Positions 1,280 through 50,137 of a stretch of DNA of 64,000 nt are shown piece after piece. Every line of letters starts with the position of its first letter. The stretch's first letter is position 1. The stretch is from Clostridia bacterium. GTDB lineage: Bacteria > Bacillota > DTU086. A program made the position numbers and the translations under genes. The notes below the pieces were generated by a model. The model was not told where the DNA came from. It did no database searches and saw only the letters and a program-made list of their open reading frames with translations. Where the stretch lies: the NCBI GenBank assembly GCA_012523575.1, contig JAAYIF010000052.1, positions 14,635 to 78,634 of the forward strand, given 5' to 3'.

Positions 1280-2704
1280 TTAACTGCTATTTTCGGGCAA
1301 TTGCATACTGCCTGGCAACCTTTTTATTTCTTCAGGTAAATTACTTGTAAAAAGCAGTTTGCGAATTTCTTTTATATGGTTTCCAAGATTCCATTCTTTT
1401 ACATTCCTAACCTCTGCAAATCCCGCGTGGGCAATTAAATTCCTAATGGAGTTTATTTCAGAAAACTCGCAATGGAGTTTCTTCAGCGGCGAACCATCGG
1501 GTTCATTAGCAAAATTTTTAAAAAGTTTTTTCGCCTTTTCACGATCATCCTTATTTGTAATAGATACATCTACTCCTGAACTTTTATATAATTCCAAGAT
1601 CTTTGTAATTATAGCTTCTGCTAGGCAGATATAGGAGCTGGAATATCGTTTGTTTTCATAGTACCATTCAGCCAGTCTAAATTGAAATTCTGAATTGGAA
1701 CTTAAGCCGTGGAATCTTTTAGCAAAATCCTCTACGTAAGGCAGCAAATACCTGAAAGCCAGATATTCCGGTGTATCAATTTTCGCCTTTTTACTTTCCA
1801 GCAGATTATTTAGTTTGTCTACGTTGCTTCTTAAATTTTTCAAAGAATTTAGGTTAATTAAATCGGAAATGTTTTTTATTATTTCACTTGTTTCTTCGTC
1901 ATTAATTAATTCGGATATAAGGTAACCGTTGCCGTAATTAATGAAATCATAAGTTGCTTTAATCCATTTGGATATGGTAAAAAGCAGCTTCAAATCCACT
2001 ATTTTTGAATAACCAATTTCTCTGCGAACCTCAAGCATTCCGTAATACACGCTTTTAAGTTTTATATTTTTATATTTCAAAGTCTCAAGGAAATCAAGCA
2101 TTACAAACATAAAAATAGGAATGGACCGGAAAGAGTGAGTGATGTCCAGGTAAACTTCATCACCTTCTTTTAAATTATCTGCTATGTTCATGAAAGTTTT
2201 AAAATTCTTAATTAACTCTTCATCTTTCATTCCGTAATCCATTAAAAAACATCTGCTTCCACCCTCAGCATCAGAACGAAGTTTTTTCAAGTAAGCATCT
2301 ATAACCTCACTAACCTTTTTAAGATCATTCTCACTCACTTTGTTAGGCATACCATGTTTATAATTTTCTACTTTCGTGCCTAGATCTGTATAAAAATTAT
2401 CGTCAATATATACATCTGCATTCTGAGCAAAATAAAGATAAACCTCTTCCCACATGGATTTTTCTGTGCCCACTAGAATAACTTTATCAATCTTTAAATG
2501 AGTGGCCAGCGCTGCAGCAACAAAAGAAGTCACGTAACCTTTACCATTTTCCGAAAATCTATATTCAGTTTTTTGGTATTCCCTTATCTGAAATGGAACA
2601 TTATCCTGCATAACTGCATCGATCGACCGCTCATTTATGCCATTTGGTACTTTTTTGATAATGGGCTGACCTGCACCAATGGCAGATATAAGCACCTTAG
2701 ACAT
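1280..2704 (-). CDS. csx1: CRISPR-associated CARF–HEPN protein Csx1 (cyclic-oligoadenylate sensor/RNase family)
   Basis: 474 aa. N-terminal CARF-type 'DITHSFRSIP' loop (DxTHGFR-like). C-terminal HEPN Rx4-6H motif 'RNLIAH'. Adjacent to cmr1. Confidence 0.75.
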   Translation of the reverse strand: MSKVLISAIGAGQPIIKKVPNGINERSIDAVMQDNVPFQIREYQKTEYRFSENGKGYVTSFVAAALATHLKIDKVILVGTEKSMWEEVYLYFAQNADVYIDDNFYTDLGTKVENYKHGMPNKVSENDLKKVSEVIDAYLKKLRSDAEGGSRCFLMDYGMKDEELIKNFKTFMNIADNLKEGDEVYLDITHSFRSIPIFMFVMLDFLETLKYKNIKLKSVYYGMLEVRREIGYSKIVDLKLLFTISKWIKATYDFINYGNGYLISELINDEETSEIIKNISDLINLNSLKNLRSNVDKLNNLLESKKAKIDTPEYLAFRYLLPYVEDFAKRFHGLSSNSEFQFRLAEWYYENKRYSSSYICLAEAIITKILELYKSSGVDVSITNKDDREKAKKLFKNFANEPDGSPLKKLHCEFSEINSIRNLIAHAGFAEVRNVKEWNLGNHIKEIRKLLFTSNLPEEIKRLPGSMQLPENSS

Positions 2705-2888: not shown

Positions 2889-3455
2889 TTGACTGAGCAT
2901 ACACGTGAAGCGGTACCTGCCACTGCCGGGCGGGTTCCAAATCCACCAAAGGAGTGCAGCGGTCAGCTTTATACTGTCCAGGCTTCTGATTCCCTTTTCA
3001 AGATTGCCCGCAGATTTGGAGTTACCGTTGAAGCGATACTGGCAGCCAACCCTCAGATTGTAAACCGCGACGTCATTTTTATCGGCCAGGTTATCTGCAT
3101 ACCCTCCGGGGGACCACAACCTCCCGGTCAGTTTCGCGTTCTAACACTCAGATTTTTGACCGAGGAAGGCCAACCGCTGCCCACGGAGGGTGGAGCGGTT
3201 CAGCTCATAGAACGTGTTATTGTCCGAGCTACCTTTACTCGTCCGGTATCAAGAGCTTTCTTTTTCCTGGAACCAACTGGCACGGAAACCTGCGAATTAG
3301 CCAGCCTTATTGGAGTGGACTGCCCCAGCGCAACTACGGGAGTTGCTGAAATACTTTGGCAGGTGCAGCGGGGAACTCTTGGCCGGGTATATGTGGTTGC
3401 GTGCATTGACAGTGTATGTGCAAAATCTGATGATGTTCTTGTTGTTCGTGAGTAA
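2889..3455 (+). CDS. LysM domain protein
   Basis: TTG start with AAGGAGG RBS. LysM motif YTVQASDSLFKIARRFGVTVEAILAANP. Visibly more GC-rich than its neighbours. Confidence 0.7.
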   Translation: MTEHTREAVPATAGRVPNPPKECSGQLYTVQASDSLFKIARRFGVTVEAILAANPQIVNRDVIFIGQVICIPSGGPQPPGQFRVLTLRFLTEEGQPLPTEGGAVQLIERVIVRATFTRPVSRAFFFLEPTGTETCELASLIGVDCPSATTGVAEILWQVQRGTLGRVYVVACIDSVCAKSDDVLVVRE

Positions 3456-3480
3456 TAAGTGTTGTAGTCTAAAAACCATG

Positions 3481-3506
3481 CCGCCATCCAAGCGGTCTTT
3501 TTTGAG
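3481..3506 (+). terminator. Weak terminator after the LysM gene
   Basis: Short hairpin CCGC-CATCCAA-GCGG followed by TCTTTTTT. Confidence 0.35.
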
Positions 3507-3591
3507 TTTTCCGGCTTCTAATCCTAATAGGTAGGCTCATTATCCTTTTGGCACTGAATTTCCCCTTACCAAAATGTTACAAAATATACAA

Positions 3592-3990
3592 TCATTCTTC
3601 AATCTTTATTTCAACTTCTTTTACAGTTCCCCTTTCCCTGTCAATCCTAAACCCCCGAAGCTCCTGGGGCTCCTCCAGGGACAATATAAGATAGACTACC
3701 GGATAAAAAGCCATGTTCACGTCTTTCTGAGAAGGATATGCAGAACCATGGGGGTGGGAGTGGAAGATAGCAACCATTTTCATATTCCTTTTTCTTATAT
3801 CCTTCATCACGGAAATCTGTTCTTTGGGGTCCATGAAGTAGCTATTTGGGCTTTTATCCACATTGGTCATAGGATAAAATATCTCCGCCCTGCCTTCCAC
3901 TCCCCCTATTAGACCACACGCTTCATTGGGTTTTTCCTTATTGGAGAAATCAACCATCCCTTTGTACATCTTTTTCGGTATCACAAACAT
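3592..3990 (-). CDS. JAMM/MPN+ (Mov34) family metalloprotease
   Basis: 132 aa. JAMM motif E...HSHPHGSAYPSQKD (HxHx7Sx2D). Same strand as metX-metY and 62 nt downstream of metX. Confidence 0.8.
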   Translation of the reverse strand: MFVIPKKMYKGMVDFSNKEKPNEACGLIGGVEGRAEIFYPMTNVDKSPNSYFMDPKEQISVMKDIRKRNMKMVAIFHSHPHGSAYPSQKDVNMAFYPVVYLILSLEEPQELRGFRIDRERGTVKEVEIKIEE

Positions 3991-4052
3991 TTTTTACACC
4001 TCAGAATCACAATTTTATTCGAATGAATTGAAAGAATTGTGGATGGTCCAAT

Positions 4053-5195
4053 TTATACAGCAACGGCTTCAATGGCGAGGAAAAACTGACGCAGTATAGC
4101 CCCCAGCCTCTCAAACTCCACAAGAAAGGCATCGTGGCCGTGGGAAGATTTCAGCTCCACGTACTTTGCCCTCTTGCCCAGAAAAAGGAGATCTTCCACC
4201 AGCTGTCTCAGCAGGTAAGGAGGAAAGAGAATGTCCGAGCTTATACCTATGCAAATTACAATGGATCTAATTCTCCGCAGGGCTTCTTCAAGAGAATCGT
4301 ATCCCCGGGCAATGTCGTGGAGATCCATGGCCTTTGCAAGGTAGATGTAGCAGTTGGCATCAAACCTTTTTACCAGTTTATCCCCCTGATAATGAAGATA
4401 GTTTTCAATCTCGAATCTTCCACTAAAATCAAAGCATTTTTCATCAGGACCGCCGAAATCCCTTCCAAACCTGCGATTCCACAGCTCGTCGCTCTTATAG
4501 GTTATCATTCCAATCATCCTTGCCAGGGCAAGGCCGCGCACCGGGCCCGGCCCCGGGTAGTAATCACCGCCGCACCAGTCCGGGTCCTGCATAATGGCCT
4601 CCCTCTGCACCGCATTAAAGGCTATGCACTGGGGCGTAAGCTGGGCAGACGTCGCTATGGGAATAACACAGTCCATATACCCCGGATAGGTAACCGCCCA
4701 CTCCAGGGCCTGCATGCCTCCCATGGAGCCCCCTATTACCGCAATTAAATGCTTAACACCGAGATGGTCAAGAAGCCTTTTTTGAACCCTGACCATATCC
4801 CTTATGGTAACAGTGGGAAAATCCATGCCATAGGGTTTGCCGGTTCTGGGATTTATAGAGGCCGGGCCCGTGGTGCCATAGCAGCTTCCAAGGACGTTGG
4901 AACAAACTACAAAATATCTGTTTGTATCGATAACCTTTCCGGGTCCTATCAGAGGGTCCCACCAGCCCGGTTCCCTGTCACCGGGGGTATGGTATCCCGC
5001 AGCATGGGCGCTGCCCGTGAGAGCATGGAGAATCAGAACGGCATTATCCCCTCTTTGGTTCAGGGTGCCGTAGGTTTCGTAAGCTACGGTTATTGGACCT
5101 AACTTTTCCCCGCTTTCCAGAACGAATTCGTAAGGGGAAAAGGCAAAGGTATACTTTTGGGTTTTCACCAGCCGGTCCATTAGGTTTACCCCCAT
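4053..5195 (-). CDS. metX: Homoserine O-acetyltransferase
   Basis: 380 aa. Alpha/beta-hydrolase nucleophile motif GGSMGGMQALEW. Typical MetX length and composition. Confidence 0.9.
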   Translation of the reverse strand: MGVNLMDRLVKTQKYTFAFSPYEFVLESGEKLGPITVAYETYGTLNQRGDNAVLILHALTGSAHAAGYHTPGDREPGWWDPLIGPGKVIDTNRYFVVCSNVLGSCYGTTGPASINPRTGKPYGMDFPTVTIRDMVRVQKRLLDHLGVKHLIAVIGGSMGGMQALEWAVTYPGYMDCVIPIATSAQLTPQCIAFNAVQREAIMQDPDWCGGDYYPGPGPVRGLALARMIGMITYKSDELWNRRFGRDFGGPDEKCFDFSGRFEIENYLHYQGDKLVKRFDANCYIYLAKAMDLHDIARGYDSLEEALRRIRSIVICIGISSDILFPPYLLRQLVEDLLFLGKRAKYVELKSSHGHDAFLVEFERLGAILRQFFLAIEAVAV

Positions 5196-5197
5196 TT

Positions 5198-6697
<1,500 letters not shown>

Positions 6698-6784
6698 AAG
6701 CGTGATAATTATTAAGTTTTATAAGGGCAGATTTTTTATTGGGATAAATTATAAATACCCAACTCCCATTTGTCAACAAAAATT

Positions 6785-7609
6785 TTATGGTTCACCGATA
6801 ACTTCGTTAAGGCTGCCTGTGCGGTATCCATCCAGGTCCAGGGCAACGTAATTAAATCCGCAGGCCTTAACCTCCCGGGAAATCCGACGCAGCAGTTCCG
6901 GTTTCAATATCCCGGCCATCTCCTCGGGGGCAATTTCGATTCTGGCCACAGTCCCGTGGTATCTCACCCTCACGTTTTTAAAGCCCAGGTCAGCCAGCCT
7001 CTCTTCCGCCCGGTCAACCATTTCCAGTTTTTCCAGGGATAAGGGTTCCCCATAGGGAATCCTGGTGGCCAGGCAGGGTCTGGCGGGGCGGTTCCAGTTT
7101 TCCAAACCAAGAAACTTGGCTATTTGTCGCACATCATCTTTTTCTATACCGCAGTCAAGCAGAGGACTTCTAACCATTTCAAAGCTCCGGACAGCCTCAA
7201 GGCCGGGGCGGTAATCCCCGGTGTCCGAGCTGTTGGACCCCTCCAGCACATACCTGTAGCCTTCACGGCGGGCCACTTCCGTCAGCAGCTCAAAGGAACG
7301 CCGCTTGCAGTGGTAACAGCGTTGGGGGGTGTTTGCCACAATCTGCGCATCCTGCAGTTCATTGGTCTCAATGATTCGGTGAGGCACTTGCAATTCCCGG
7401 GCAATCCTTTGGGCGTCTTCCAGATCCCCGTGGGGTATGAGGGGAGAACGCAACGTCACGGCCAGAATGTTCCGTTTCCCAAGGCAGTCGGCGGAAACCT
7501 TTAGCACAAGGGAGCTGTCCACCCCGCCGGAAAAGGCAACCATAACCCTTTCCAGCTGTTTAATATAAAGGGAAAGGTTTGCTAGCTTTTCCTCCAGTTG
7601 TTTATCCAT
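6785..7609 (-). CDS. LarE-like PP-loop ATPase / sulfur transferase (TIGR00268 family)
   Basis: 274 aa. PP-loop SGGVDSS. Strong overall similarity to LarE, including the conserved Cys in 'PCLATRIPYG' (equivalent to the LarE catalytic Cys). Additional CxxC (RCYHCK). Confidence 0.8.
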   Translation of the reverse strand: MDKQLEEKLANLSLYIKQLERVMVAFSGGVDSSLVLKVSADCLGKRNILAVTLRSPLIPHGDLEDAQRIARELQVPHRIIETNELQDAQIVANTPQRCYHCKRRSFELLTEVARREGYRYVLEGSNSSDTGDYRPGLEAVRSFEMVRSPLLDCGIEKDDVRQIAKFLGLENWNRPARPCLATRIPYGEPLSLEKLEMVDRAEERLADLGFKNVRVRYHGTVARIEIAPEEMAGILKPELLRRISREVKACGFNYVALDLDGYRTGSLNEVIGEP

Positions 7610-7659
7610 ACAAAAACACCCTTTTCAATTGCCTTTCCTTACGCTTCTCTAAATACTTC

Positions 7660-8589
7660 TCATTCCTCTACCTGAAAAAGTTCGGTGCTCAAATAGCGCT
7701 CCCCGGAATCCGGAAGAATCACAACGATCACTTTACCGCTGCTCTCGGGCCTTTTCGCCACCTGCTGTGCAGCGTAAGCCGCCGCTCCCGCAGAGATCCC
7801 CACCAGTAGACCCAGTGTCCGGGCTAGAAGCCTGCTGGTATTGAAGGCATCCTCAGCGGAAACCGGGATAACCTCATCCACCAGTGACAGATTGAGAACT
7901 TCGGGAACAAAACCGGCGCCAATTCCCTGAATCTTATGTGGGCCCGGCTTGCCTCCTGACAATACCGGAGAGTCAGAGGGTTCCACAGCAATGATCTTCA
8001 AGGTGTCCTTGCGCTTCTTTAGTTCCTCGGCGATACCCGTAATGGTTCCCCCGGTGCCAACACCGCCAACTATGATGTCCACCTTGCCATCCGTATCATC
8101 CCAAATTTCCTGGGCCGTGGTAGCCCGGTGGGCAGCGGGGTTGGACGGGTTTTCGAACTGCTGGGGAATAAAGGAATTGGGTATCTCTTTAGCCAGTTCT
8201 TCAGCCTTTTCCACAGCACCCTTCATCCCTTCAGAGCCCGGCGTTAATACCAGCTCGGCACCGTAAGCCTGGAGGAGTTTGCGGCGCTCTATGCTCATGG
8301 TTTCCGGCATGGTCAATATCAGGCGGTATCCCCTGGCGGCGCAAACAAAGGCCAGGGCAATCCCTGTGTTTCCACTGGTGGGCTCAATGATGACGGTGTC
8401 TTTATTGATAAGCCCCTTTTCCTCAGCATCCCTGATCATGGCATAGCCGATCCTGTCTTTCACACTGCCGGCAGGATTGAAGTACTCCAGTTTCCCGAGG
8501 ACTTCAGCATCCGTCCCCTGGGCTAGAGGTTTTAAACGCAGCAGAGGAGTCCCCCCGATCAGTTCCGTAAGGTTATCATAAACCCGCAT
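7660..8589 (-). CDS. cysK: Cysteine synthase (O-acetylserine sulfhydrylase)
   Basis: 309 aa. PLP-binding motifs [10 protein letters not shown] and [10 protein letters not shown]. Confidence 0.9.
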
Positions 8590-8696
8590 AAATTAACCCT
8601 CCTATTGTTAATAAAGAATGAATAGTTCACCACTATACTTACTTATGTTTTGTTAATTATATTTCCCCGGGATCGGATATGTCAACAACTACAAAA

Positions 8697-8736
8697 AATA
8701 TTCCCCAGGCAGCAATTGCAGTCCGGGGAATATTGA
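8697..8736. promoter_or_regulatory. Palindrome in the cysK/hypothetical divergent intergenic region (candidate operator)
   Basis: AATATTCCCC-AGGCAGCAATTGCAGTCC-GGGGAATATT. Perfect 10-bp arms around a GCAATTGC core. About 108 nt upstream of the cysK start. Confidence 0.3.
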
Positions 8737-8808
8737 ATGGCAGTAACTCATTCCTCCTTTTTGCGCCTTCTGGAAAACAGAAAAAATTTTGCAAAAAAGT
8801 AAACAGCG

Positions 8809-8837
8809 TTGACAGGATAAAAGGTGAGTGTTATGTT
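8809..8837 (+). promoter_or_regulatory. Putative sigma-A-like promoter for the CorA-like gene
   Basis: TTGACA-17 nt-TATGTT. Confidence 0.3.
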
Positions 8838-8869
8838 ATGGTAAAAATATCTCAAGGGCAGGGTTTATT

Positions 8870-10234
8870 ATGGAAATTCCTAAGTTTACCTTTGCCATAA
8901 TTCCCTTCAAGTACAGCTACTCTTTTGATTCCATCGAAAAAATTGCTGCGGAAGGCGGCATATGGCAGGAAGAATGTTCTGATTACTCACGATTTTATAA
9001 ACATATTAATATCAACCTGGACAAAAGAAACCCCAACCGGAGTATTATTGAATATAAAGCTGTGCTGTCTCCGGAAAAAAGTTCTGAATTGGGTTTTTAT
9101 ATCTCTGATAAACACAAATATTTACTGACAGGCAGGAACGAAGCCGGGGAGTATTACCGTGGCACTGTATGGATTCCGGAAATAAAAATGTTTGTCTTTG
9201 ACACAAATATAGGATTTATCTCCTGTAACTTTATCTTTGAGGACAACATAGATTTTGAATCCATGTGTGAATTAATCTGTCTTATTAAAAAAATGAAGTT
9301 CCACCAGGACAATGAAAAAAATAAAACTCTTACCATGAGGCTCGAAGACCAAAGCAAGTGCATTAATCTTCTTGAAATAATTCAAAATACTCTATTGGGT
9401 GAAGGATTTAGTGTAGGTGCGGATTTGTTTTTCGACCGCAGCGATGTTAAACGCCGGGTTTCCGCAATGATGCTGAGCTCATTTCTGTTCGAGAAAGAAA
9501 TCAGTGAAAAGGAAGCTGTCATGTATCTAAGGCCGCTAAAAAGATCCCAGAACAAAACCCACGAAGTAGGTTTTTACAGGGAGGTAGATAAAGAGCGCGT
9601 TTTGCGGCCTTTTAAAAATATGTTCTGGGGATTTTCTCCCCAGGGTGTGGCCAATATCAACTATGTCGTAGAAAAAATCAGCAACGAAAAATTTATCAGA
9701 TCATTATACACCACTATTAAGAGGGAATACCTGTTCATGACCGTTTTTCTGCTAAATCAATCTTACACACTTATTGATTACTGTCACGCTTTCTCCACCG
9801 CTGCTGATAAGGCTGTTTCTCAAGAAGAGATACAGCGGATGCACAATTTTCGGCTTAAACATGTTTTTAACACCGTTTCGATCCTGGAGCATTATCGGGA
9901 ATACTATGAAAAGTTAAGGAATGCCTTGGCTATTGACAGCCTCCTTCATGAAGTGGATGAAAAGCTGGACTCCCTGTATAAGAAAAAGGAAGATCAAAGA
10001 GACGAATACCTCCGGAAAATCGAAAACAGAGTTGTAACACTTACCCTGGTTTTTACTATTCTCCTTGCAATTCTTGGAATAGTGTCCACAATGAATGCCG
10101 GGTATTATTTGTATGTGGATGTTGGCTTAAAAAATTTCCTGCTCTTATTTGTCGGCACCACTATAGCTTTAGCAGTAATTGTCTTTATAATTGTCATGAC
10201 AGTTAGAAAACTTCGCAAAACTCCTGATTTATAA
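8870..10234 (+). CDS. Hypothetical protein with CorA-like C-terminal two-TM module (divergent; 'TMN' in place of GMN)
   Basis: 455 aa from ATG 8870 (the ORF-track start at 8828 is GTG with no RBS spacing). Large soluble N-domain. C-terminus has coiled-coil–TM1(…LGIVSTMNAG)–short loop–TM2–basic tail (RKLRKTPDL), the same order as CorA (…GIYGMNF…KKKKWL). AT-rich. Confidence 0.5.
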   Translation: MEIPKFTFAIIPFKYSYSFDSIEKIAAEGGIWQEECSDYSRFYKHININLDKRNPNRSIIEYKAVLSPEKSSELGFYISDKHKYLLTGRNEAGEYYRGTVWIPEIKMFVFDTNIGFISCNFIFEDNIDFESMCELICLIKKMKFHQDNEKNKTLTMRLEDQSKCINLLEIIQNTLLGEGFSVGADLFFDRSDVKRRVSAMMLSSFLFEKEISEKEAVMYLRPLKRSQNKTHEVGFYREVDKERVLRPFKNMFWGFSPQGVANINYVVEKISNEKFIRSLYTTIKREYLFMTVFLLNQSYTLIDYCHAFSTAADKAVSQEEIQRMHNFRLKHVFNTVSILEHYREYYEKLRNALAIDSLLHEVDEKLDSLYKKKEDQRDEYLRKIENRVVTLTLVFTILLAILGIVSTMNAGYYLYVDVGLKNFLLLFVGTTIALAVIVFIIVMTVRKLRKTPDL

Positions 10235-10319
10235 AAAGAGACCCATTCCCGGTTTGGGAAAGGGTTTTTCTGAAATTGCGAAGTATTTCTTTCACTAAGA
10301 TGGTGAACAAATTTACTCT

Positions 10320-10647
10320 CCTGCTTATTTCTCCTTTTTCCCAAATAAGCAGCCTTAACATATTCTCTTTCCAGCATCTTCCACCCTTTTGTGCTTAAAA
10401 ATTTGTCCGTCTCCAGGATATGGCCACAATCTGCGTGCAGGGCCATATTGGCATTATGTTTTTTAAGAGAATAATTTCCCTTAACACGAATCTTTTCTAT
10501 TATTCCGAAAATATCCCTTACAAACAGGGGAATCATCCTCAGAGAGGCTCGTCCATCTTCAGAATCATAGGATAAAACCTCAGCGCCCTTTTCACTGCCG
10601 ATATTTGCTGCTCTCCACCCGGACAAAGTTCCCACCATCTGCCACAA
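10320..10647 (-). pseudogene. Decayed 3' fragment of a livF-like ABC ATPase gene
   Basis: Translation WQMVGTLSGW...ALHADCGHILETDKFLS...EYVKAAYLGKRRNKQ aligns with the C-terminal ~110 aa of intact LivF at 12312-13064 (WQLAGTLSGGEQQ...ALHIADWGYVLETGKIVLS...EVKAAYLGKKRQ). The Walker-B/LSGGQ region is degraded and the stop is lost. Confidence 0.55.
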
Positions 10648-10769
10648 GTACCCCTAAGCTTGTGGAAAAACACTTATATCCAAACGCTGTTTGATAGCAA
10701 AGATAGCAAAAGGCTTACATTCCTTATAGATAAGGTAAAAAAAATAGCCAGTAGCATTTTTTGAAACTG

Positions 10770-11891
10770 TCATTTTACGAATCCATATTTATTTTTTAAA
10801 TACTCTTTTCTGATATCATCTATGCTTTTTAATTTACCGTTACGAATAACGTACCAATAGTTATAACCATTAACCCTTTTAGCTCTGCCCCCTTTAGCTT
10901 TTGCTGCGCAAGAATGCATATCCATTTCTTCTCCCCTAAAAACAAGTTTTCCGTTAGCTTTCAGTCTAGCCTCCGCTGATTTATTCTTTAGAAAAAAGCT
11001 TTCTCCTTCAATGAAATAACCGTCTTGTATCATTTGTTGCATAGTTACCTTTGGAGGCTTTTCATCAAATTTTGCTTTTTCTATATCTCCTATGTGAGTG
11101 ACAGTTGATGCTAATCTTTTTTCTCCGTATTCACAATATTTTTTGTCTTTTTCAATCATAATATAGTTTCTTCCCATTCTTTTTGCGACTACACCCGTTG
11201 TCATGGTTCCAGCAAATGGATCTAAAACAAGATCTCCAACTTTTGAAGATATGGCAATAATTCTGTAAAGAAGTTCTTCCGGTTTCTGTGTGCTATGAAG
11301 TTTTTCTCCTTTATCATCTTTTAATCTCTCATTACCCTGACAAATACCTATTCTCCAAACAGAACCTAACTGCTTTCTAACACCATTTCTGTATTCTTCC
11401 TCGCTTACAGTATCCTTATTGAGTTCTTTTGCGGTTTTATAATTGAAGGTAAACTTTGATTTTTGCGACTTTGTTGCCCATATCAAGGTTTCATGACTGT
11501 TGTTTAATCTTACTCCTCTAAAGTTAGGGGTTGGATTTTTTTTATACCATATAACATCGTTAATAAGCCAAAAACCTATTCTTTGCATTATTGCTCCAAT
11601 GGTATATATACATTGCATACCTCCTATTACCCAGATAGAGCCATCCTTTTTCAAAACTCTTTTACATTCGCTGAGCCATTTTTCTGTAAAATTTTCATAA
11701 TCCTCTAATGTTGTAAACTGATTGTCCCACTCGTCAACGCAACCATCAAACTCTGTTCCTTCCACTCTATGCAAAACTCCTTCAACTCTCATCCAATAAG
11801 GAGGATCTGCGAAAATTAGATCAACACTGTCATCTGGTATTTTTTTTAATTCCACCAAAGCATCTCCATTAATAACTACATTTTTTTCCAT
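10770..11891 (-). CDS. N6-adenine DNA methyltransferase, beta class, CcrM/M.HinfI family (predicted GANTC); orphan
   Basis: 373 aa. Motif IV DLIFADPPY precedes motif I LDPFAGTMTTG. Near-colinear similarity to CcrM (KRVLKDDG(S/T)(I/L)WVIG…WxLNDIxWxKxNPxPNFxG…HETLIWA…HxTQKPE(E/A)LLYR…LDPFxGxGTTG…) including a C-terminal extension. No adjacent restriction endonuclease. Confidence 0.85.
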   Translation of the reverse strand: MEKNVVINGDALVELKKIPDDSVDLIFADPPYWMRVEGVLHRVEGTEFDGCVDEWDNQFTTLEDYENFTEKWLSECKRVLKKDGSIWVIGGMQCIYTIGAIMQRIGFWLINDVIWYKKNPTPNFRGVRLNNSHETLIWATKSQKSKFTFNYKTAKELNKDTVSEEEYRNGVRKQLGSVWRIGICQGNERLKDDKGEKLHSTQKPEELLYRIIAISSKVGDLVLDPFAGTMTTGVVAKRMGRNYIMIEKDKKYCEYGEKRLASTVTHIGDIEKAKFDEKPPKVTMQQMIQDGYFIEGESFFLKNKSAEARLKANGKLVFRGEEMDMHSCAAKAKGGRAKRVNGYNYWYVIRNGKLKSIDDIRKEYLKNKYGFVK

Positions 11892-26254: not shown

Positions 26255-27244
26255 ATGTTTGGCCATAGAACGTCAAGCACAATACCCAATGTAAAGGTTG
26301 TGGGAATAGGTAGCGGGGGAAATCTGGTAATCAATCAAATGATCTCCCAGGGCATTAAGGGCCCAGATTATATTAACCTGGATACAAATCCCCATTTCTT
26401 AAGCCTGTGCAGAGCCCAGCAAAAGCTTAAAATGTTCCATGGCGGCCTCTCCCCAACGGAAATAAGTCAAATAATGGAAGAAACAGCCAGGGAAAATAAA
26501 GAGCACTTTTCAAAAATGTTTAAGGGGGCTGACGTGGTAATAATTGTGGCAGCTCTGGGGGGAAATGTGGGAAGTTCCATAGCTCCCATAGTGGCGGAGG
26601 CGGCCATGGAAGTAGATTCTGTAACCATAGCGGCTGTCACAAAACCCCTTACCTTTGGGCTTAAGGATAGGCTTATCATGGCTGAAGAGAGAGTGGCCCA
26701 GCTTAAGGAAAGGGTGCACACCCTAATGGTTGTGCAAAACGACGTGCTTCAAGAAAAGTTGGGCAAAACTGCGGTACCTGCGGATATATTCCGCTCGGGG
26801 GATGAAATGCTCATCAGGGGTATTCAATCTATTATCCTAACGCTGATCTTTGAAGAGCACCGGAGGAGAAAAAATGCCGCAGCCATAGGGGAAATTAAAC
26901 ACTTTACCCGAAACTACAGCCCCGCTGAATTAAAAAACTTTCTCAAACAAGGCGGCACCGCAGTTATAGGAACGGGCAGCGCTTCAGGTAAAAGAAAAAC
27001 CCTGGAAGCAGCTAAAACCGCTCTTTCCCACTGTTTAACGGAACAACAGAACAGAAATGCGGAGTACGTCATACTAAACGTTACCAGGGGAAAGGAATCC
27101 CACCTTTTGGACGTAAACACCCTGCTAAAAATGGCTAGGAGGGCCTTCAGCAAAGAAGTGAAAATATTCTTTACGGATACGATTTTGGACAAAGATATGG
27201 GGGGAGAAGTAAACGTCACAGCCATTGCAGGCAAAAGGGACTAA
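26255..27244 (+). CDS. Divergent FtsZ/tubulin-like protein (degenerate GTP-binding motifs)
   Basis: 329 aa. VKVVGIGSGGNLVINQM aligns to FtsZ IKVIGVGGGGNNAVNRM. ALGGNVGSSIAPIVA aligns to GGGTGTGAAPVIA with G→N and T→V. VVQNDVLQE aligns to IPNDRLLE. No recognisable T7 'NVDFAD' loop and no C-terminal tail. Confidence 0.7.
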   Translation: MFGHRTSSTIPNVKVVGIGSGGNLVINQMISQGIKGPDYINLDTNPHFLSLCRAQQKLKMFHGGLSPTEISQIMEETARENKEHFSKMFKGADVVIIVAALGGNVGSSIAPIVAEAAMEVDSVTIAAVTKPLTFGLKDRLIMAEERVAQLKERVHTLMVVQNDVLQEKLGKTAVPADIFRSGDEMLIRGIQSIILTLIFEEHRRRKNAAAIGEIKHFTRNYSPAELKNFLKQGGTAVIGTGSASGKRKTLEAAKTALSHCLTEQQNRNAEYVILNVTRGKESHLLDVNTLLKMARRAFSKEVKIFFTDTILDKDMGGEVNVTAIAGKRD

Positions 27245-28101: not shown

Positions 28102-28770
28102 TTGAAATTTACGGATGAAGCCCGGAAAAAGGCTGCTCCTATTTGGGACGCACAATTCAGCCATCCCTTCGTAAAGGGCATAGGGGACGGAAGCCTAGAC
28201 ATGGAAAAGTTTAAATACTGGGTCAGGCAGGATTACGTCTACCTGAAGAACTACTCAAGGGTCTTTGCCCTGGGGGCTGCCAAAGCCAAGGATCTGAAAA
28301 CCATGGGTACCTTTGCCAAGCTTCTGGACGGGACCCTGAATATGGAGATGGAGCTCCACCGGAATTATGCTGCAAAGTTTGGCATATCCGAAGAAGAGCT
28401 GGAAAATGAAACCCCAGCTCCTACCACCCAAGCTTACACTGACTATCTGGTGGTCTGTTCCTACAGCGGAGATCTGGCAGAGCTCATAGCGGCGCTGCTA
28501 CCCTGTGCATGGGGATTCTGGGAAATTGGAAAGTACCTTAAGGAGCACGGGGATACGTCGGAGAAAAACCCCTACAGAGACTGGATAGAGATGTATTCAT
28601 CCAAGGAATTTGAAGAATTATGCCTCTGGTGTATGGAGCTCATGGACAGGGAAGCAGAGCTGTGCCCGCCCCATAAAAAGGAGATTCTCCTGGATATTTT
28701 CATTACCAGCAGTAAGTATGAGTATATGTTCTGGGAAATGGCTTACAATCTTGAAAAGTGGCCGGTGTAA
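28102..28770 (+). CDS. tenA: Thiaminase II / aminopyrimidine aminohydrolase TenA
   Basis: 222 aa, TTG start with GGAGGTG RBS. TenA/THI-4 family signature (FVKGIGDGSLDMEKFKYWVRQDYVYL…). Confidence 0.8.
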   Translation: MKFTDEARKKAAPIWDAQFSHPFVKGIGDGSLDMEKFKYWVRQDYVYLKNYSRVFALGAAKAKDLKTMGTFAKLLDGTLNMEMELHRNYAAKFGISEEELENETPAPTTQAYTDYLVVCSYSGDLAELIAALLPCAWGFWEIGKYLKEHGDTSEKNPYRDWIEMYSSKEFEELCLWCMELMDREAELCPPHKKEILLDIFITSSKYEYMFWEMAYNLEKWPV

Positions 28771-28840: not shown

Positions 28841-28867
28841 TCTCTGCTGCAGTTTTCTCTACTTGCG

Positions 28868-29035
28868 AACTCACGCCGGACGTCTCTAAGCAAAGCGTAA
28901 TGGGCAAAACCGGGCCGCCCCAAATTCGGCGTCCATGCCTCAGGTTGGGGGCTGGCGCGAACGTCCATGCTCGCGCCCCCCGGTTTTGCCTTACGCTTTG
29001 CCAGAGCTGTTAGCCGGCGTTCGTTAAGTCGTTTC
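28868..29035. other. GC-rich ~170-nt long imperfect inverted repeat (candidate structured ncRNA or MITE-like element)
   Basis: Arms …ACGCCGG…GCAAAGCGTAATGGGCAAAACCGGG… and …CCCGGTTTTGCCTTACGCTTTGC…CCGGCGT… pair over ~55 nt around a ~50-nt core that carries its own hairpin GGCGCGA-ACGTCCATGC-TCGCGCC. GC-rich in an AT-moderate intergenic region. The overlapping ORFs are judged spurious. Confidence 0.4.
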
Positions 29036-29265: not shown

Positions 29266-31983
29266 GTGCGCAACCGGAACAGCGGTGAAAGAGCAAAAAC
29301 CCCGGGGGTTAAAAAATACATAGCCCCGTTAATTATTTTTTTCCTTATTGCCGCCGTGGCACTGATGGGATTCGCAGCGAATATATTAAAAGACTTGCCC
29401 GAAATTTCCGAGGACAGCCTTAAACCGGAGATTCTCACCACCTTTATCTATGACAAAGACGGAAACAGAGTAACGGATCTCCACGGGATTCATAAATGCG
29501 TGCCCGTAAAACTTAAGGACGTTCCGGAGGAACTTATAAATGCCGTTATAGCCGTGGAAGACAGGGACTTCTTTAAGCATAGAGAGAACACCTGGACCTT
29601 AATTAAGGCCTTCCTATCCCCTTTAAAGGGAGAAAAAAGCCTTCAGGACAAAAACGGCATTACTATGCAGCTGGTGGAAAATATTTTTCATCCTGGGGAA
29701 AACAGTAAGGATTACAGGGAAAAAATCAAAAAAACATACCTGGCCTTGAAAATGGAGCAGAAATTCTCAAAGGAAGAAATCCTTGAGGCTTATCTCAACC
29801 AAATTTATTTCGGTCACGGCGCCTATGGAGTCCAGGCCGCTGCCCAAACCTATTTCGGTAAGGGCGTTGGAGACCTTACCCTGGGAGAATGCGCCCTCAT
29901 TGCCGGTATCGCTGACAATCCCGAGGCTTATTCACCCTTTAACAATCCGGAGGCAGCGAAAAAACGCAGGGATACGGTGCTGAACAGTATGGCGGAAGAG
30001 GGATATATTGGCCGGGAAGAAGCTGAAAAAACGGCAAGTGAGCCATTAAATCTCATTCACCCCGAAGAAAATGAATCCCATAAATATCCTTATTTTATTG
30101 ACGCCGTGGTTCAGGAAACCCAGGAGCTTTTGAAACAAGCGGGCCTGGATCATACGGAGATTTACCGTAAAGGATATAGAATCTACACCACCCTGGACCC
30201 TTCAGTTCAGGAAAAGATGCAGGACATATATAGTAACAGAAGGAAGTTCCCACCGGGTTCGGGAGGCGGTACCGTGGAAAGCACCATGGTGGTGCTGGAT
30301 CATCGCACTGGAGAAATAAGGGGGCTGGTGGGAGGAAGAAGCTACAGCAGCGGAAGCAGTTTCAACAGATCCCTTGAAGCCAAAAGACAACCGGGAACCA
30401 TATTAACTCCTTTTATTGTATACGCCCCTGCCCTTGAGATGGGCTATTCCCCGGCCTATGTAGTGGATGATGCGCCGGTGGTCTATAAAGCGCCGGACGG
30501 CTCCGTATATCGTCCCCAAAACAAAGACGGAAAATTTCGGGGCCTTATAACCATGAGGGAAGCCATGAGTCTTTCCCTCAATGTTCCTGCGGTTAAGTTA
30601 TTAAATGAAGTGGGTGTGGAAAAGGGAACAGACTTTGCGAAAAAAATGGGATTCTCGATTGCAACGGAAAACGAAGATTTAAAAGCTGCCCTGGGGGAAA
30701 CCGGCGGGAAAACAACCCTAATGAACCTTGCCGTCGCCTATGGCGCTTCCGCCAACGGCGGAGTTATAGTTGAGCCCCATACAATTACAAAAATAACTGA
30801 CTACCAGGGAAAGGTTATCGTTAAAGTTACCCCCAAAAAGAAAAGGGTAATGAGCCCCCAAACGGCTTATCTCCTTACCCACATGCTGAAAACGTCTCTG
30901 GGGGCCCAGGAGGGAAGAGCTCAAACTATCAAAGGCAATGCCGCAGCGGGTTACAGCGGACAAGCCCCTCTCCCAGATCTTAAAGAATTTAAAGGTCTTA
31001 GGGGCTATCAGGACCAGTGGTTTGTGGGGTTTACCCCAAAGCTGCTGGGTGCGGTGTGGTTGGGATACGATCAAACCTCCCCCAAGCAGTATTTGAAGGA
31101 TGATTATAGCAGGCTCTGCTTTTCCCTTTGGGAAGAAGTAATGGAAGAAGCCCATAGGGAAATGGGACCCGGGGACTTTATTCCACCCGATGGGATAACC
31201 GAGGTGCTGGTGGACAAAAAATCCGGCAAACTGCCTAGCAGGATCACGCCCAAGAATTATATAATAAAGGAGCTTTTTAGAGAGGACAAAGTGCCCGGGG
31301 AAGTTTCCGATGTTTGGATCGAAAAGGAAATCTGTACGGAAACCGGGCTTCTGGCTTCCCAGTTCTGCCCTGAAACAACTAAAGAAGTATTCCTCAAAAG
31401 GCCCGAAGTTTCAGGGAACGTAAAGCCCCTTGATGCAGCCCTGGAAGCACCAAAGGAAGTATGTTTCCTCCACACTACAACGGGAAGCTATATCACAGTA
31501 AACGTCTGTACGGACCCCGCACACAAGGGCAAATATTATCTTGCAAACATCCCTGTGGAAGGTTATTTGGGAGGATGTCCCTCCAAATATATTAAGAAGA
31601 TGAATTTCCCGGCGGGAAAGGAGCCCAGGGAGTACTGCCCCATACCGGCTCATCAGCTTAAATTGGACACGGGAAACAACTCAGGAACAGTACCCCCCAC
31701 GCCCATACTGAAAGGCTCCGTTTCCAGGGGAGAAGGGGGTAAGCCCTTGGTGCGCCTTCAGTGGAAAGTGCCCGATAATTCGGGAACCATACTTTACTCC
31801 ATAGAAAGGTGGACACCCCTTTACCCCATAAGGTTTGAAATTGCCATAACGTCCAAAAATATATGGACGGACGTTTATGTAAAACCGGGGAATACTTACT
31901 ATTACCGAGTGGTAGCCGTGGACGTTTACTCCAATTTAAAATCCCCGTCAAACCGCATTGAAGTTTCAGTTCCGGCAAATTAA
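29266..31983 (+). CDS. Class A penicillin-binding protein (PBP1A/1B: glycosyltransferase + transpeptidase) with C-terminal FN3-like domain
   Basis: 905 aa, GTG start. N-terminal TM. GT51 motifs (…AVIAVEDRDFFKH…). Transpeptidase SxxK/SxN-type regions. C-terminal beta-rich domain. Confidence 0.9.
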   Translation: MRNRNSGERAKTPGVKKYIAPLIIFFLIAAVALMGFAANILKDLPEISEDSLKPEILTTFIYDKDGNRVTDLHGIHKCVPVKLKDVPEELINAVIAVEDRDFFKHRENTWTLIKAFLSPLKGEKSLQDKNGITMQLVENIFHPGENSKDYREKIKKTYLALKMEQKFSKEEILEAYLNQIYFGHGAYGVQAAAQTYFGKGVGDLTLGECALIAGIADNPEAYSPFNNPEAAKKRRDTVLNSMAEEGYIGREEAEKTASEPLNLIHPEENESHKYPYFIDAVVQETQELLKQAGLDHTEIYRKGYRIYTTLDPSVQEKMQDIYSNRRKFPPGSGGGTVESTMVVLDHRTGEIRGLVGGRSYSSGSSFNRSLEAKRQPGTILTPFIVYAPALEMGYSPAYVVDDAPVVYKAPDGSVYRPQNKDGKFRGLITMREAMSLSLNVPAVKLLNEVGVEKGTDFAKKMGFSIATENEDLKAALGETGGKTTLMNLAVAYGASANGGVIVEPHTITKITDYQGKVIVKVTPKKKRVMSPQTAYLLTHMLKTSLGAQEGRAQTIKGNAAAGYSGQAPLPDLKEFKGLRGYQDQWFVGFTPKLLGAVWLGYDQTSPKQYLKDDYSRLCFSLWEEVMEEAHREMGPGDFIPPDGITEVLVDKKSGKLPSRITPKNYIIKELFREDKVPGEVSDVWIEKEICTETGLLASQFCPETTKEVFLKRPEVSGNVKPLDAALEAPKEVCFLHTTTGSYITVNVCTDPAHKGKYYLANIPVEGYLGGCPSKYIKKMNFPAGKEPREYCPIPAHQLKLDTGNNSGTVPPTPILKGSVSRGEGGKPLVRLQWKVPDNSGTILYSIERWTPLYPIRFEIAITSKNIWTDVYVKPGNTYYYRVVAVDVYSNLKSPSNRIEVSVPAN

Positions 31984-44145: not shown

Positions 44146-45237
44146 TCAGACAACCATGTGTTTTTCAGCCTTTTTGGCATTCTCCTTAACGGAAATAATC
44201 TCCTCCTCCGTAAGGGACTTTTCAAAACTCCTAAATCCTGCCAGTTTAAAGCCGTGTTTTTCCCCAAGCCTTCTGATCTCATCCACCTGCTCTATGGTTA
44301 TGTCCCTGCCCAAAGTGAAGTTCTCATATCTCCCTTCCAATGCAAGGATCATGGTTTCCGCCATGCAGGCAAGGGTAACGTTTTTGGGGTATCCGATACT
44401 AAGGTCGGTTTCCACAGCTCCGGGGATTTGCACCAATCCCCCTTCAATCACCAGAACATCCTTTCTTTTTTCCGCCACCCGGCGGGCCACATCTCTAGGC
44501 CTTGCCACATCGCAGACCACCGCTCCCGGGGAAAGGTGCTCCGGCTGTATAATGGCCTCTGCGGAAGAAGTGACTGTTATAACCACCTTTGCTCTTTTAA
44601 GGGCCCTTTCCAGGTCACTGGTTACGGAAACTGCCAGCCCCGTTTCGTGCATAATTATCCTGGAAAGGCGGTCCAGCTTTTCTCTGTTTCTGGCAATGAG
44701 AGTGAGATACTTGCATTCCCTTGCCATAAGCCTGGCGCATACCGCCCCAATGGAACCCGTCGCTCCCACTACCACAACCTCTTCCTCAGATATATCAATG
44801 CCCATGATTTCCGCTGCCTTTTTTGTTCCCTCCATGGCAGTGGCCACCGTATAGCTGTTTCCCGTGGTTACGGCAATATTTAAATTTTCTGCCACCGTTA
44901 TCCCGGCATCGGCCACCACGGAAGTCATGGCTCCAAGGCCCACAATTTTGGCATCGTATTTTTCCCCCAACTTTCCTGACTTTATTATCCGTTTCAACAC
45001 GTACCTTTCCGGAAGATACAGCATCTGCCTAGTAGTCAAGGGGCATACAATGAAAACCCCAGAAACTTCCTTTCCCGTGGCAGCGGATCGTATTCCCCTT
45101 ATGGAAGCAAGTTTAAAGGGCGGTGAAAGGCGGAAGCTTCCCTCCACTATTTTTCCGGGAACCTTGCGGGCAAAATGAAATTTTCGAAAGATGTCACTGA
45201 CGTCCAGTGGATGAACTATAAAGGCGAAATCAGCCAT
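44146..45237 (-). CDS. Acyl-ACP reductase (AAR)-like / shikimate-DH-fold NAD(P)-dependent dehydrogenase
   Basis: 363 aa. Colinear similarity to cyanobacterial AAR (…GYPKN…ETMILALEGRYENFTLGRDITIEQVDEI…HGFK vs …GGYPKN…[29 protein letters not shown]…HGFQ). Rossmann motif VVGATGSIG. Confidence 0.7.
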   Translation of the reverse strand: MADFAFIVHPLDVSDIFRKFHFARKVPGKIVEGSFRLSPPFKLASIRGIRSAATGKEVSGVFIVCPLTTRQMLYLPERYVLKRIIKSGKLGEKYDAKIVGLGAMTSVVADAGITVAENLNIAVTTGNSYTVATAMEGTKKAAEIMGIDISEEEVVVVGATGSIGAVCARLMARECKYLTLIARNREKLDRLSRIIMHETGLAVSVTSDLERALKRAKVVITVTSSAEAIIQPEHLSPGAVVCDVARPRDVARRVAEKRKDVLVIEGGLVQIPGAVETDLSIGYPKNVTLACMAETMILALEGRYENFTLGRDITIEQVDEIRRLGEKHGFKLAGFRSFEKSLTEEEIISVKENAKKAEKHMVV

Positions 45238-46204
45238 GAATAAGCCTCCTTTCGGGTTCCACCCCGGATTTTATCCCTTGGGAATTTGGAGTGTTTTGGT
45301 CCGTAAAATCCACTATTCTGGGTTTAAAGCCCATTTTATCAATCATTCGGGAATAATCCTGGGGCGTAATTTCTTCCTGGGGTTTTTCCAAAAAAGCAAC
45401 CATCAAAGCTTCCATGACGTTGGTTCCGAAGGATCGCCCGTTGAATTCTGGGGTTGTGGTTATTAGTTTTGCCACTCCCCTGTCCCTCAACATTTCCACG
45501 TCTTTGGGGGTAACGGTATTGGTTATTATTATCTTTCCCTTGAGGTTTTCGGGGATATGGCGTTTTATATAGTGAAAATCCCCGGCAATGATTTCAGCTT
45601 CGTAGTAGTACTTTGCCACCTTCCGGCTGGGCTTTTTGGTTTTTTTGTTTCCCGAAGGATACAACAATTTGATGGGAAGAAAAGTCACCGCCGGAGCCGC
45701 TATGCGCGCCAATTTGTCCATGGTTTCAAGGGAATAAAGGGGAATGGGAATACCCAAACCAAACATGAGATCTCCAATGGTCAAATTGGCATGGTGCTTT
45801 ATCATTTCCTCCGCCATTCCAAAGCGGTCAGCAGCGCACACCATCAAAACCTTTTTGCCCTCGAAGGAAACAATGGATTCTTTCTGAAGATAATCCACAA
45901 CCCTTCTTTCCAAAGTATTTTTGAGGCCGCTGCCGTCCACAATGGGCGTCTTTTTAACGGCTGAAACCATTTTTTTGCCGTCCCTTAAGGCATACCTCTT
46001 TTTCCCCACATAAATATAAAGGTCAGTGCCCCCTATTCCAAAGGCATCAACGGTTCCGTCCAGCTCCCTCAAAAGGGATAGAGCCCTGGCCAGGTTTCCG
46101 TCGGTTCCAATTCTTTCTATATGAACCTTTTCTCCGAAAATCTCCGTCTCCACTTTATGGTTCCTCTCCGAAGAGCCTAAACTTATGCTGACTACCTTCT
46201 TCAT
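45230..46204 (-). CDS. Conserved protein of unknown function (co-operonic with the AAR-like dehydrogenase)
   Basis: 324 aa, MKKVVSISLGSSERNH… Overlaps the downstream gene by 8 nt. Confidence 0.6.
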   Translation of the reverse strand: MKKVVSISLGSSERNHKVETEIFGEKVHIERIGTDGNLARALSLLRELDGTVDAFGIGGTDLYIYVGKKRYALRDGKKMVSAVKKTPIVDGSGLKNTLERRVVDYLQKESIVSFEGKKVLMVCAADRFGMAEEMIKHHANLTIGDLMFGLGIPIPLYSLETMDKLARIAAPAVTFLPIKLLYPSGNKKTKKPSRKVAKYYYEAEIIAGDFHYIKRHIPENLKGKIIITNTVTPKDVEMLRDRGVAKLITTTPEFNGRSFGTNVMEALMVAFLEKPQEEITPQDYSRMIDKMGFKPRIVDFTDQNTPNSQGIKSGVEPERRLIHG

Positions 46205-46223
46205 CAGACGGCCTCCCTTAATT

Positions 46224-46754
46224 TCATTTGTCCAACATCACCCTGTCAATGATCTTTTCTATTTCCTCAACGGGTACATATTTGTCGCCCTTTATGGGAG
46301 ATTTTCCGATTTCAATCCCAATCACTTCCTTGTCCAGAAGGGCTTCGCTCAGCTTTATCCTGTAGTTGGAGCCCAGCACAAGCACCACATCATAGCTCCT
46401 CAATTTGGTAATAATTTCCATAACAGTGTTGAAAAGCTCCATCCCGTTGGACTCCTGCACAAACCGCCAGCGCTCCTCATCGGTCATGATAAGCATGTAT
46501 TCAACGCCTCTGGAGGCCAAAGCATTTTGTAGCTCTTCCTTGTTTTCTATGGGAAAGCCAACAACGGCTATGCGCTTTCCCTTCCGGATCTCTCCCAAAC
46601 TTTCCAATCTGGAAATGAAGGTTCTGTCCACATTCATCTTTTCCCCCACTTCCTGCTGGGAAAGGCCCGAGGAACGCAGCTGCAGTATTTTGTCCACAGC
46701 ATTGTAAATTTTGTCCACACTTATTAACTTGCTGCCGATACGAATGATTTTCAT
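46224..46754 (-). CDS. HTH-domain putative regulator with C-terminal domain of unknown function
   Basis: Start set at MKIIRIG (AAAGG RBS). HTH-like LSQQEVGEKMNVDRTFISRLE. Confidence 0.55.
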   Translation of the reverse strand: MKIIRIGSKLISVDKIYNAVDKILQLRSSGLSQQEVGEKMNVDRTFISRLESLGEIRKGKRIAVVGFPIENKEELQNALASRGVEYMLIMTDEERWRFVQESNGMELFNTVMEIITKLRSYDVVLVLGSNYRIKLSEALLDKEVIGIEIGKSPIKGDKYVPVEEIEKIIDRVMLDK

Positions 46755-46856
46755 AACTATAACCTTTGTGCACAAAAATGTCTACATATAATTTTAGCAG
46801 AAACTAACTCTTTTATTCAATTTTGACATAAAAAAAAGAGGCCCAAGAAAAAACTT

Positions 46857-49774: not shown

Positions 49775-50137
49775 TTAAGGGCCATCGTGCACCTCTACAA
49801 TTCCATTGTGCTCGTCCACCAGCACAATCCGGGGATGATGTTCCGCAAGCTCCTTATGATTAAAGAAGCCGTAGGCCATAATGATCAGCAAATCGCCGGG
49901 TTGAGCCAGGCGGGCGGCGGCTCCGTTGACGCAGATTTCCCCTTCTCTTTCCCCTTCCATAACATAGGTTTCAAAACGATTCCCGTTATTTATATTCACC
50001 ACCTGAACTTTTTCGTAGGGCAGGATGGAAGCCGCTTCAAGGAGTCTCCAGTCTATGGTAATGCTTCCCACATAATTGAGATTTACCTCCGTTACCCTTG
50101 CCCTGTGGATCTTGCTCCTCAGCATTTCCCGAAACAC
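49775..50137 (-). CDS. panD: Aspartate 1-decarboxylase
   Basis: Start set at GTG giving [29 protein letters not shown] (cf. B. subtilis [29 protein letters not shown]). Pyruvoyl-forming G-S site. Confidence 0.9.

Follow-up and report, generated by a model that had tools for sequence, protein, structure and literature searches.

A probable iron-sulfur-class LarE encoded beside cysteine synthase in a Clostridia bacterium

Introduction

LarE proteins are ATP-dependent sulfur insertases of the PP-loop superfamily. The LarE of Lactiplantibacillus plantarum is encoded in a larA-E operon and spends its Cys176 only once, with conversion of this residue to dehydroalanine. In Bacillus subtilis, cymR, the cysteine desulfurase gene yrvO and mnmA form a cysteine-linked thiolation operon, and CymR also works with CysK. 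Here we analyze a stretch of 64,000 nucleotides from a Clostridia bacterium (GCA_012523575.1, contig JAAYIF010000052.1; hereafter the window, meaning this whole stretch), in which a larE gene lies directly 3' of cysK, the gene of cysteine synthase A, and we compare the gene, its product and its neighborhood with the described systems.

Among these systems, the LarE of Thermotoga maritima is the closest in its cysteine arrangement. [quoted passage not shown] In vitro, L-cysteine together with IscS raised the activity and allowed turnover, while Na2S was no sulfur source (PMC9283937). [quoted passage not shown] A nickel-pincer-dependent LarA homolog has also been characterized biochemically from Geobacter metallireducens (PMC11770544). 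We think it probable (about 65%) that the protein of the window is a true iron-sulfur-class LarE whose gene belongs to an operon for cysteine supply.

The window encodes a LarE of the CXXC-C type

The larE product matched TIGR00268 ("ATP-dependent sacrificial sulfur transferase LarE") with 314.7 bits against a cutoff of 150, and the match spanned residues 7 to 268 and model positions 1 to 259 of 259. A preliminary description, made from the letters alone, had already placed a LarE-family gene 50 nt downstream of cysK, a family assignment that this score bears out. The protein could be aligned over its full length to L. plantarum LarE (5UDQ, E=1e-53) and to a LarE-type protein of Methanococcus maripaludis (8CNZ, E=5e-29). 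An AlphaFold2 model built on 31 homologs reached a predicted local distance difference test score (pLDDT) of 91.2 and a predicted TM-score (pTM) of 0.87, and the best 50 Foldseek matches of this model in the PDB were all L. plantarum LarE, with TM-scores (query) of 0.76 to 0.86 and 36 to 40% identity. The PP-loop motif SGGVDSS, which the preliminary description had also pointed out, occupies residues 27 to 33, and S27, G28, G29, D31 and S32 are invariant among the 31 homologs. In addition to the fold and the PP-loop, the two enzymes share the residue pairs (L. plantarum/window) K101/K102, R181/R183, E200/E202, R212/R214 and R214/R216.

By comparing the cysteines, we found that the window protein departs from the L. 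plantarum enzyme and follows that of T. maritima. C98 and C101 in RCYHCK stand where L. plantarum LarE, which has no CXXC, has W97 and A100, and they align with the RCYNCK of 8CNZ, while C179 in PCLATRIPYG aligns with L. plantarum Ser177, one residue past Cys176, and with the third cysteine (TCMATR) of 8CNZ. The latter protein is distant and archaeal, and its gene context is unrelated. In T. maritima LarE, which carries the same SGGxDS PP-loop, the counterparts are C92, C95 and C172, with the third cysteine displaced in the same way; its fourth, adjacent cysteine is replaced by Pro178 in the window protein. The PP-loop, R97, C98, C101, C179, R183, R214, R216 and H218 are kept in all 31 close and mid-range homologs, and the three cysteines are 99% conserved in a set of 165 sequences. 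The P2CMN phosphate ligands are conserved as well, Ser180, Arg212 and Arg214 of L. plantarum corresponding to T182, R214 and R216.

By analogy with T. maritima LarE, the window LarE is expected to be catalytic and to obtain sulfur from L-cysteine via a cysteine desulfurase; its iron-sulfur cluster, its substrate and its sulfur route in vivo would be those of the family. The preliminary description had taken the RCYHCK motif as a sign of an iron-sulfur cluster and of catalytic rather than sacrificial transfer, and by the same analogy this implication stands. Its presentation of the motif as something extra does not, because CXXC-C is the published majority form of LarE (PMC9283937), so that the CxxC of the window carries no novelty. 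Likewise, the motif PCLATRIPYG is present as described, but C179 is not the exact equivalent of the reactive Cys176. "Sacrificial" in the NCBI product name is probably a misnomer for this protein and for most other CXXC-C LarE. In all sequence and fold comparisons made, the window LarE is a routine member of the characterized [4Fe-4S] class, and NCBI already annotates it as LarE.

cysK and larE as a presumed bicistronic unit

cysK and larE lie on the same strand, larE 3' of cysK, and the 50-nt gap between them holds neither a promoter-like nor a terminator-like site on the minus strand (Table 1). With the gap uninterrupted, the two genes are most simply read as one bicistronic cysK-larE unit, and their co-transcription appears likely from this layout. 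The consensus site upstream of cysK is the presumed promoter of this unit, and with the second consensus site, just behind larE, a distinct met transcription unit appears to begin. metY-metX (4053..6481) provides a sulfur amino-acid context 3' of larE. No T-box or other leader was found 5' of cysK by an Rfam search at a permissive threshold over positions 6400..9000, in which the S-adenosylmethionine (SAM) riboswitch 3' of larE was the sole match. Whereas larE of T. maritima is reported to lie far from the cysteine desulfurase genes, the gene of the window stands beside cysteine synthase.

Table 1. Positions of the genes, predicted signals and LarE motif codons of the cysK-larE region in the window
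Feature	Position	Strand	Description	Evidence
Predicted promoter	8656..8685	-	Sigma-70-type, TTGACA-18-TATAAT; about 67 nt 5' of the cysK ATG	12/12; consensus match only
cysK	7660..8589	-	O-acetylserine sulfhydrylase A (cysteine synthase A), 309 aa, NLO90114.1	TIGR01139, 469.1 bits (cutoff 350.95); PF00291 (pyridoxal phosphate [PLP]-dependent fold), 267.8 bits
Intergenic spacer	7610..7659	-	50 nt, between cysK and larE	
larE	6785..7609	-	Predicted [4Fe-4S]-type (CXXC-C) ATP-dependent sulfur insertase, PP-loop superfamily, 274 aa, NLO90113.1	TIGR00268
PP-loop codons	7511..7531	-	SGGVDSS (S27-S33), ATP pyrophosphatase motif	AFSGGVDSS, residues 25-33
C98-Y-H-C101 codons	7307..7318	-	CXXC in RCYHCK, two of three predicted [4Fe-4S] ligands; C98, 7318..7316; C101, 7309..7307	Alignment; motif of PMC9283937
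C179 codon	7073..7075	-	In PCLATRIPYG, third predicted cluster ligand	Alignment
Second predicted promoter	6748..6776	-	TTGACA-17-TATAAT; begins 9 nt past the larE stop	Consensus match
SAM (S-box) riboswitch	6586..6697	-	Leader of metY-metX	RF00162, 97.1 bits (gathering score 44.4), full model 1-108
metY	5198..6481	-	O-acetylhomoserine sulfhydrylase, NLO90112.1	TIGR01326, 670.5 bits
metX	4053..5195	-	Homoserine O-acetyltransferase	NF001209, 501.2 bits

The segment directly 5' of the cysK promoter (8828-11891) is low in G+C (0.36 at 10 to 12 kb versus about 0.47 elsewhere), and it codes for a membrane protein of 468 aa that matched no family significantly and, at 10770-11891, for an N6/N4 DNA methylase that carries a RAMA domain. 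It may represent an inserted restriction-modification or mobile segment.

The pairing of cysK and larE recurs in several lineages

In order to place the arrangement among other larE loci, two samples were used. The genome sample, found with a LarE alignment, comprises 80 larE loci from species-representative genomes among the matches listed, with 40 to 52% identity to the query and 10 kb fetched on either side; the near clade of the window protein is not represented in it. The metagenome sample, independent of the first, comprises 80 loci found with the single protein, mostly homologs of 40 to 49% identity; the 8-mer search patterns, derived from the window LarE, bias this sample, and a single sediment clade predominates in it.

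Among the genome loci, cysK lay within 10 kb of larE at 11 of the 80 loci and was directly adjacent on the same strand at 6 of them. It stood 5' of larE in a Bacillota genome (L028), in Geoalkalibacter (L037), in Geobacteraceae (L041), in Desulfuromonadales (L056) and in a deltaproteobacterial metagenome-assembled genome (MAG; L091), and 3' of larE in Lachnospira (L082). With the chance adjacency rate taken as 2 in 3000, even 4 adjacencies in 80 loci would have a binomial P of about 3e-7, and direct same-strand cysK-to-larE adjacency is about 100-fold over chance, in at least 5 lineages. The metagenome sample gave cysK directly 5' of larE at 19 of 80 loci, 11 of them with the order Rrf2-cysK-larE; a further 5 loci showed Rrf2-larE without cysK, and larB/larC adjoined larE in 6 only. 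As 12 of these 19 loci belong to one clade at 70% identity, and because of the search-pattern bias, we give this count less weight than the 6 of 80 in genomes. Grouping the cysK-linked LarE proteins by identity yields 5 clusters at 55%, 9 at 60% and 13 at 70%. The pairing is therefore real, several lineages having acquired or retained it. This agrees with the preliminary description in treating the cysK linkage as meaningful, and the counter-case which that description had named, a pairing not conserved in relatives, is not borne out.

Counting neighbor families at the 80 genome loci gave LarB at 19, LarC at 18, CysK at 11, Rrf2 at 8, Cys/Met PLP enzymes at 7, and MnmA and cysteine-desulfurase-like Aminotran_5 proteins at 6 each, the neighbor clusters having been checked as AIRC (LarB-type), Ni_insertion (LarC) and Rrf2. 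CysK is the commonest recognizable neighbor after LarB/LarC, once two other clusters are excluded, one of generic ABC-ATPases (14 loci) and one of an antisense open reading frame (ORF) within larE (15 loci). Closer to the window, a partial bioreactor contig of the near clade (L162, 85% identity) carries cysK 190 nt 5' of larE. On the same contig, two CRISPR direct repeats (RF01315, 347-442) lie just 5' of the gene pair.

Rrf2, cysK, Aminotran_5 and mnmA are partners of larE at several loci (L026, L031, L091), and Rrf2-cysK-larE is carried by Geobacteraceae and Desulfuromonadales loci; the Rrf2 proteins adjoining larE score between the IscR and CymR NCBIfam models, below both cutoffs. These loci resemble the cymR-yrvO-mnmA operon of B. 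subtilis in uniting an Rrf2 regulator with cysteine metabolism and a sulfur-transferring PP-loop enzyme at one locus. They differ in that the PP-loop enzyme is LarE, acting on a small-molecule cofactor precursor, rather than a tRNA thiouridylase, and the window itself lacks Rrf2, desulfurase and mnmA. The variant neighborhoods comprise Rrf2-cysK-larE, cysK-cysteine desulfurase-mnmA-larE, fdhD-mnmA-larE and S-box-metY-larE. MnmA and FdhD receive sulfur from cysteine desulfurases, and in each variant larE sits among makers and users of cysteine-derived sulfur. No description of a link of LarE to cysteine synthase, or of Rrf2-cysK-larE, was found in the searchable literature.

Cysteine as the probable sulfur source of the iron-sulfur LarE

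The in vitro findings on T. maritima LarE offer an explanation for a cysteine-synthase partner, because a [4Fe-4S] LarE draws its sulfur from L-cysteine and cysteine desulfurase. In the mechanism we propose, C98, C101 and C179 would hold a [4Fe-4S] cluster with a non-core sulfide on its fourth iron, and this cluster-bound sulfide would attack the activated carboxylate, so that the thiocarboxylates of the nickel-pincer cofactor precursor would be formed catalytically, without the sacrifice of a cysteine. The cluster sulfide would be refilled from free L-cysteine via a cysteine desulfurase, and CysK would supply this cysteine from sulfide and O-acetylserine. In the window, larE would have been drawn into an operon of two genes, cysK and larE, with a promoter of its own, directly upstream of the metY-metX operon and its controlling S-box. 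This need to refill the cluster sulfide from cysteine would explain why larE has repeatedly been placed in cysteine or sulfur-relay regulons, and the use of free cysteine as a sulfur source by the iron-sulfur LarE is the most likely reason why the pairing recurs. The uncharacterized sulfur-trafficking role that the preliminary description had seen in the coupling to cysteine synthase is accordingly not needed, as the feeding of a [4Fe-4S] LarE by L-cysteine and a cysteine desulfurase accounts for the partner.

The recurrent linkage provides independent genomic support for the cysteine/desulfurase route known in vitro, and it predicts nickel-pincer cofactor synthesis to be tied to sulfur status in many anaerobes. 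What is added is modest and comparative: a linkage of larE with cysK, Rrf2, desulfurase, MnmA/FdhD or the S-box that is apparently undescribed.

Probably one LarE function in different genomic settings

Whether the cysK-linked enzymes differ from those encoded beside larB and larC was addressed by means of a tree and of conserved alignment columns. In a neighbor-joining tree the cysK-linked proteins were scattered among the larB/larC-linked ones; no cysK-linked sequence (56 to 57%) is closer to L028, L027 and L082 than the larB/larC-linked L019 (57 to 65% identity). All columns that are at least 96% conserved in 26 larB/larC-linked sequences hold the same residue, at 88 to 100%, in 34 cysK/Rrf2-linked ones, R214 and R216 being 100% conserved in both, and the few columns whose majority residues differ are all poorly conserved. 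No separate cysK-linked LarE subfamily was found in this way, neither as a clade of its own in the tree nor by class-specific conserved columns.

Gene linkage to lar functions points the same way. On L172, an extended view of the near-clade JGI contig that also yielded L003, a GntR gene, larB, a gene for an N-terminal LarC and then larA with a lactate-utilization set are followed by a larE whose product is 79% identical to that of the window; the distance from this larE is 14 kb to larB-larC and 6.5 kb to larA, and no other larE is found in that 21 kb. In Clostridium estertheticum (L029), the order SAM riboswitch-metY-larE is joined by a convergent larA next door. The nickel-pincer-dependent LarA homolog of G. 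metallireducens fits the Rrf2-cysK-larE gene being the LarE of that lineage. Because of the mixed tree, the shared conserved columns and the lar links of L172, C. estertheticum and Geobacter, we favor one function for the LarE family in differing genomic settings, and the earlier suggestion that the window protein is unlikely to make the nickel-pincer cofactor runs against the shared conserved residues, the mixed tree and the 79%-identical ortholog near larB, larC and larA. Separately, a DDE transposase lies at the contig-proximal end of L172, and this lar island may have been acquired or be in partial decay.

Several observations nevertheless weigh against a nickel-pincer LarE set in a cysteine-supply operon. 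Neither cysteine desulfurase nor Rrf2 genes, nor mnmA, were found in the window, and no LarA, LarB or LarC was detected in its 64 kb by Pfam searches of every ORF of 150 aa or more or by whole-window tblastn, in agreement with the preliminary description as to larB and larC. No larA, larB or larC could be tied to the source MAG either: none of the 10 NCBI LarB matches checked had an NLO accession, and LarA matches were screened by source name and identity only. Of the 11 genome loci at which cysK was found within 10 kb of larE, not one carries larB/larC as well (Fisher one-sided p=0.027), and the closest full-length relatives, P0002 (83%; L001, L002) and P0006 (79%; L003), have no cysK upstream; the closest LarE homolog, at 83% identity, is labelled Syntrophomonadaceae. 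On L172, the LarC (3374-4102) is only the 242-aa N-terminal part, the C-terminal part not being found in the next 700 nt, and the best other matches of its LarA and LarB are 56% and 72% identical (the latter Desulfitobacterium), a lack of close relatives which suggests that both were horizontally acquired. The absence of larB and larC from the window says little, however, because being unlinked is the commoner state for larE: larB and/or larC lay within 10 kb at only 21 of the 80 genome loci, and 59 had neither. On the reading that we prefer, larB and larC would lie elsewhere in the source genome. The P0002 and P0006 loci, for their part, retain the order larE, SAM riboswitch and two Cys/Met-metabolism PLP genes, as in the window.

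Part of this evidence would suit a different enzyme, along the lines of the preliminary description. The cysK-linked LarE proteins could be diverged paralogs that keep the PP-loop and the [4Fe-5S] chemistry but act on a substrate other than P2CMN, for instance by converting another carboxylate to a thiocarboxylate, with a role in cysteine-linked sulfur trafficking in genomes possibly lacking larB/larC. The lack of overlap between cysK and larB/larC neighborhoods, the frequent company of Rrf2, cysteine desulfurase, MnmA and FdhD, and the fact that no lar gene was traced to the source MAG are what such paralogs would lead one to expect. Yet no strongly conserved position, the P2CMN phosphate ligands included, shows a class-specific change, the cysK-linked proteins form no clade of their own, and the window protein scores as an equivalog-level LarE; moreover, the 79%-identical ortholog is the only larE near larB-larC-larA on L172, and the met-linked larE of C. 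estertheticum adjoins larA. We therefore regard such a paralog as unlikely.

It is somewhat more unlikely still, in our view, that the window protein is a normal LarE whose position next to cysK means nothing, a by-product of rearrangement in a sulfur amino-acid gene region that needs no co-regulation. The relatives on L001 and L003 (83% and 79%), where larE precedes the S-box met operon without cysK, would fit such a by-product, as would the high variability of larE contexts in general, 97 of 171 loci having no tracked neighbor within 3 kb. Against it stand the enrichment of same-strand cysK-to-larE order across lineages, the cysK upstream of larE on the near-clade L162, the 50-nt gap without terminator or internal promoter, and the existence of a biochemical rationale in cysteine as the sulfur source of LarE. 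More speculatively, Rrf2-cysK-larE and its variants might constitute a sulfur-status-regulated module in which, in some carriers without larB/larC, a LarE-type [4Fe-5S] enzyme thiocarboxylates a non-P2CMN substrate. This is a long shot; if true, it would give the LarE scaffold a second, so far undescribed job in cysteine-linked sulfur trafficking. The genuine, cysteine-fed iron-sulfur LarE is the reading that we prefer for the window.

Additional observations on larE neighborhoods and on the window

Some further larE contexts were seen during the survey. A tandem of fdhD, mnmA and larE is conserved in a clade of 58 to 61% identity (L011, 7909-10882; L173, 7556-10852; L174, 7851-10867), presumably representing three consumers of persulfide sulfur in a row, and on L011 and L174 genes for cysteine-desulfurase-like, Se_S_carrier and HGD-D proteins follow just 3' of it. 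In the Rrf2-(cysK)-larE loci of a sediment/Desulfuromonadales-like clade, a conserved hydrophobic protein of about 141 aa without a Pfam match is encoded directly 3' of larE (L147, 2961-3386, and 14 other loci, e.g., L150, L164, L100 and L104). In relatives of 62 to 66% identity, larE lies 0 to 23 nt 3' of the gene for a heavy-metal P1B-type ATPase (HMA and E1-E2_ATPase), with an ArsR/HTH_5 regulator before the ATPase (L005, 4148-7361; L008, 3671-6876; equivalent positions on L009 and L010; L069, 6895-10279). This is a metal-linked context, distinct from both the larB/larC and the cysK contexts. On the near-clade L001, a heavy-metal P1B-type ATPase with a CsoR-type repressor lies 2.5 kb upstream.

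Elsewhere in the window, a 474-aa ORF at 1280-2704 (-) has as its sole match a weak, sub-threshold Csx1 CARF domain (E=6e-4, 20.6 bits versus a cutoff of 24.7). Three co-directional genes at 44146-46775 (-), downstream of a FecCD-type ABC transporter, encode a protein of 363 aa whose sole match is of the Rossmann type (Shikimate_DH) and proteins of 324 and 183 aa without a Pfam match. At 26255-27244 (+), away from any division cluster, lies the gene of a short FtsZ/tubulin-family protein of 329 aa with modest Pfam scores, which may be a divergent FtsZ paralog. Two RNA motifs were also found: a pan motif at 51963-52043 (-) (RF01749, 40.6 bits, barely over the gathering score), upstream of a DUF2520/Rossmann gene (51024-51890) and panC (50119-51003), and a TwoAYGGAY motif at 28867-29026 (-) (RF01731, 67.8 bits), flanked by a TenA/THI-4 family gene (28102-28770) and the gene for a class A penicillin-binding protein (29266-31983).

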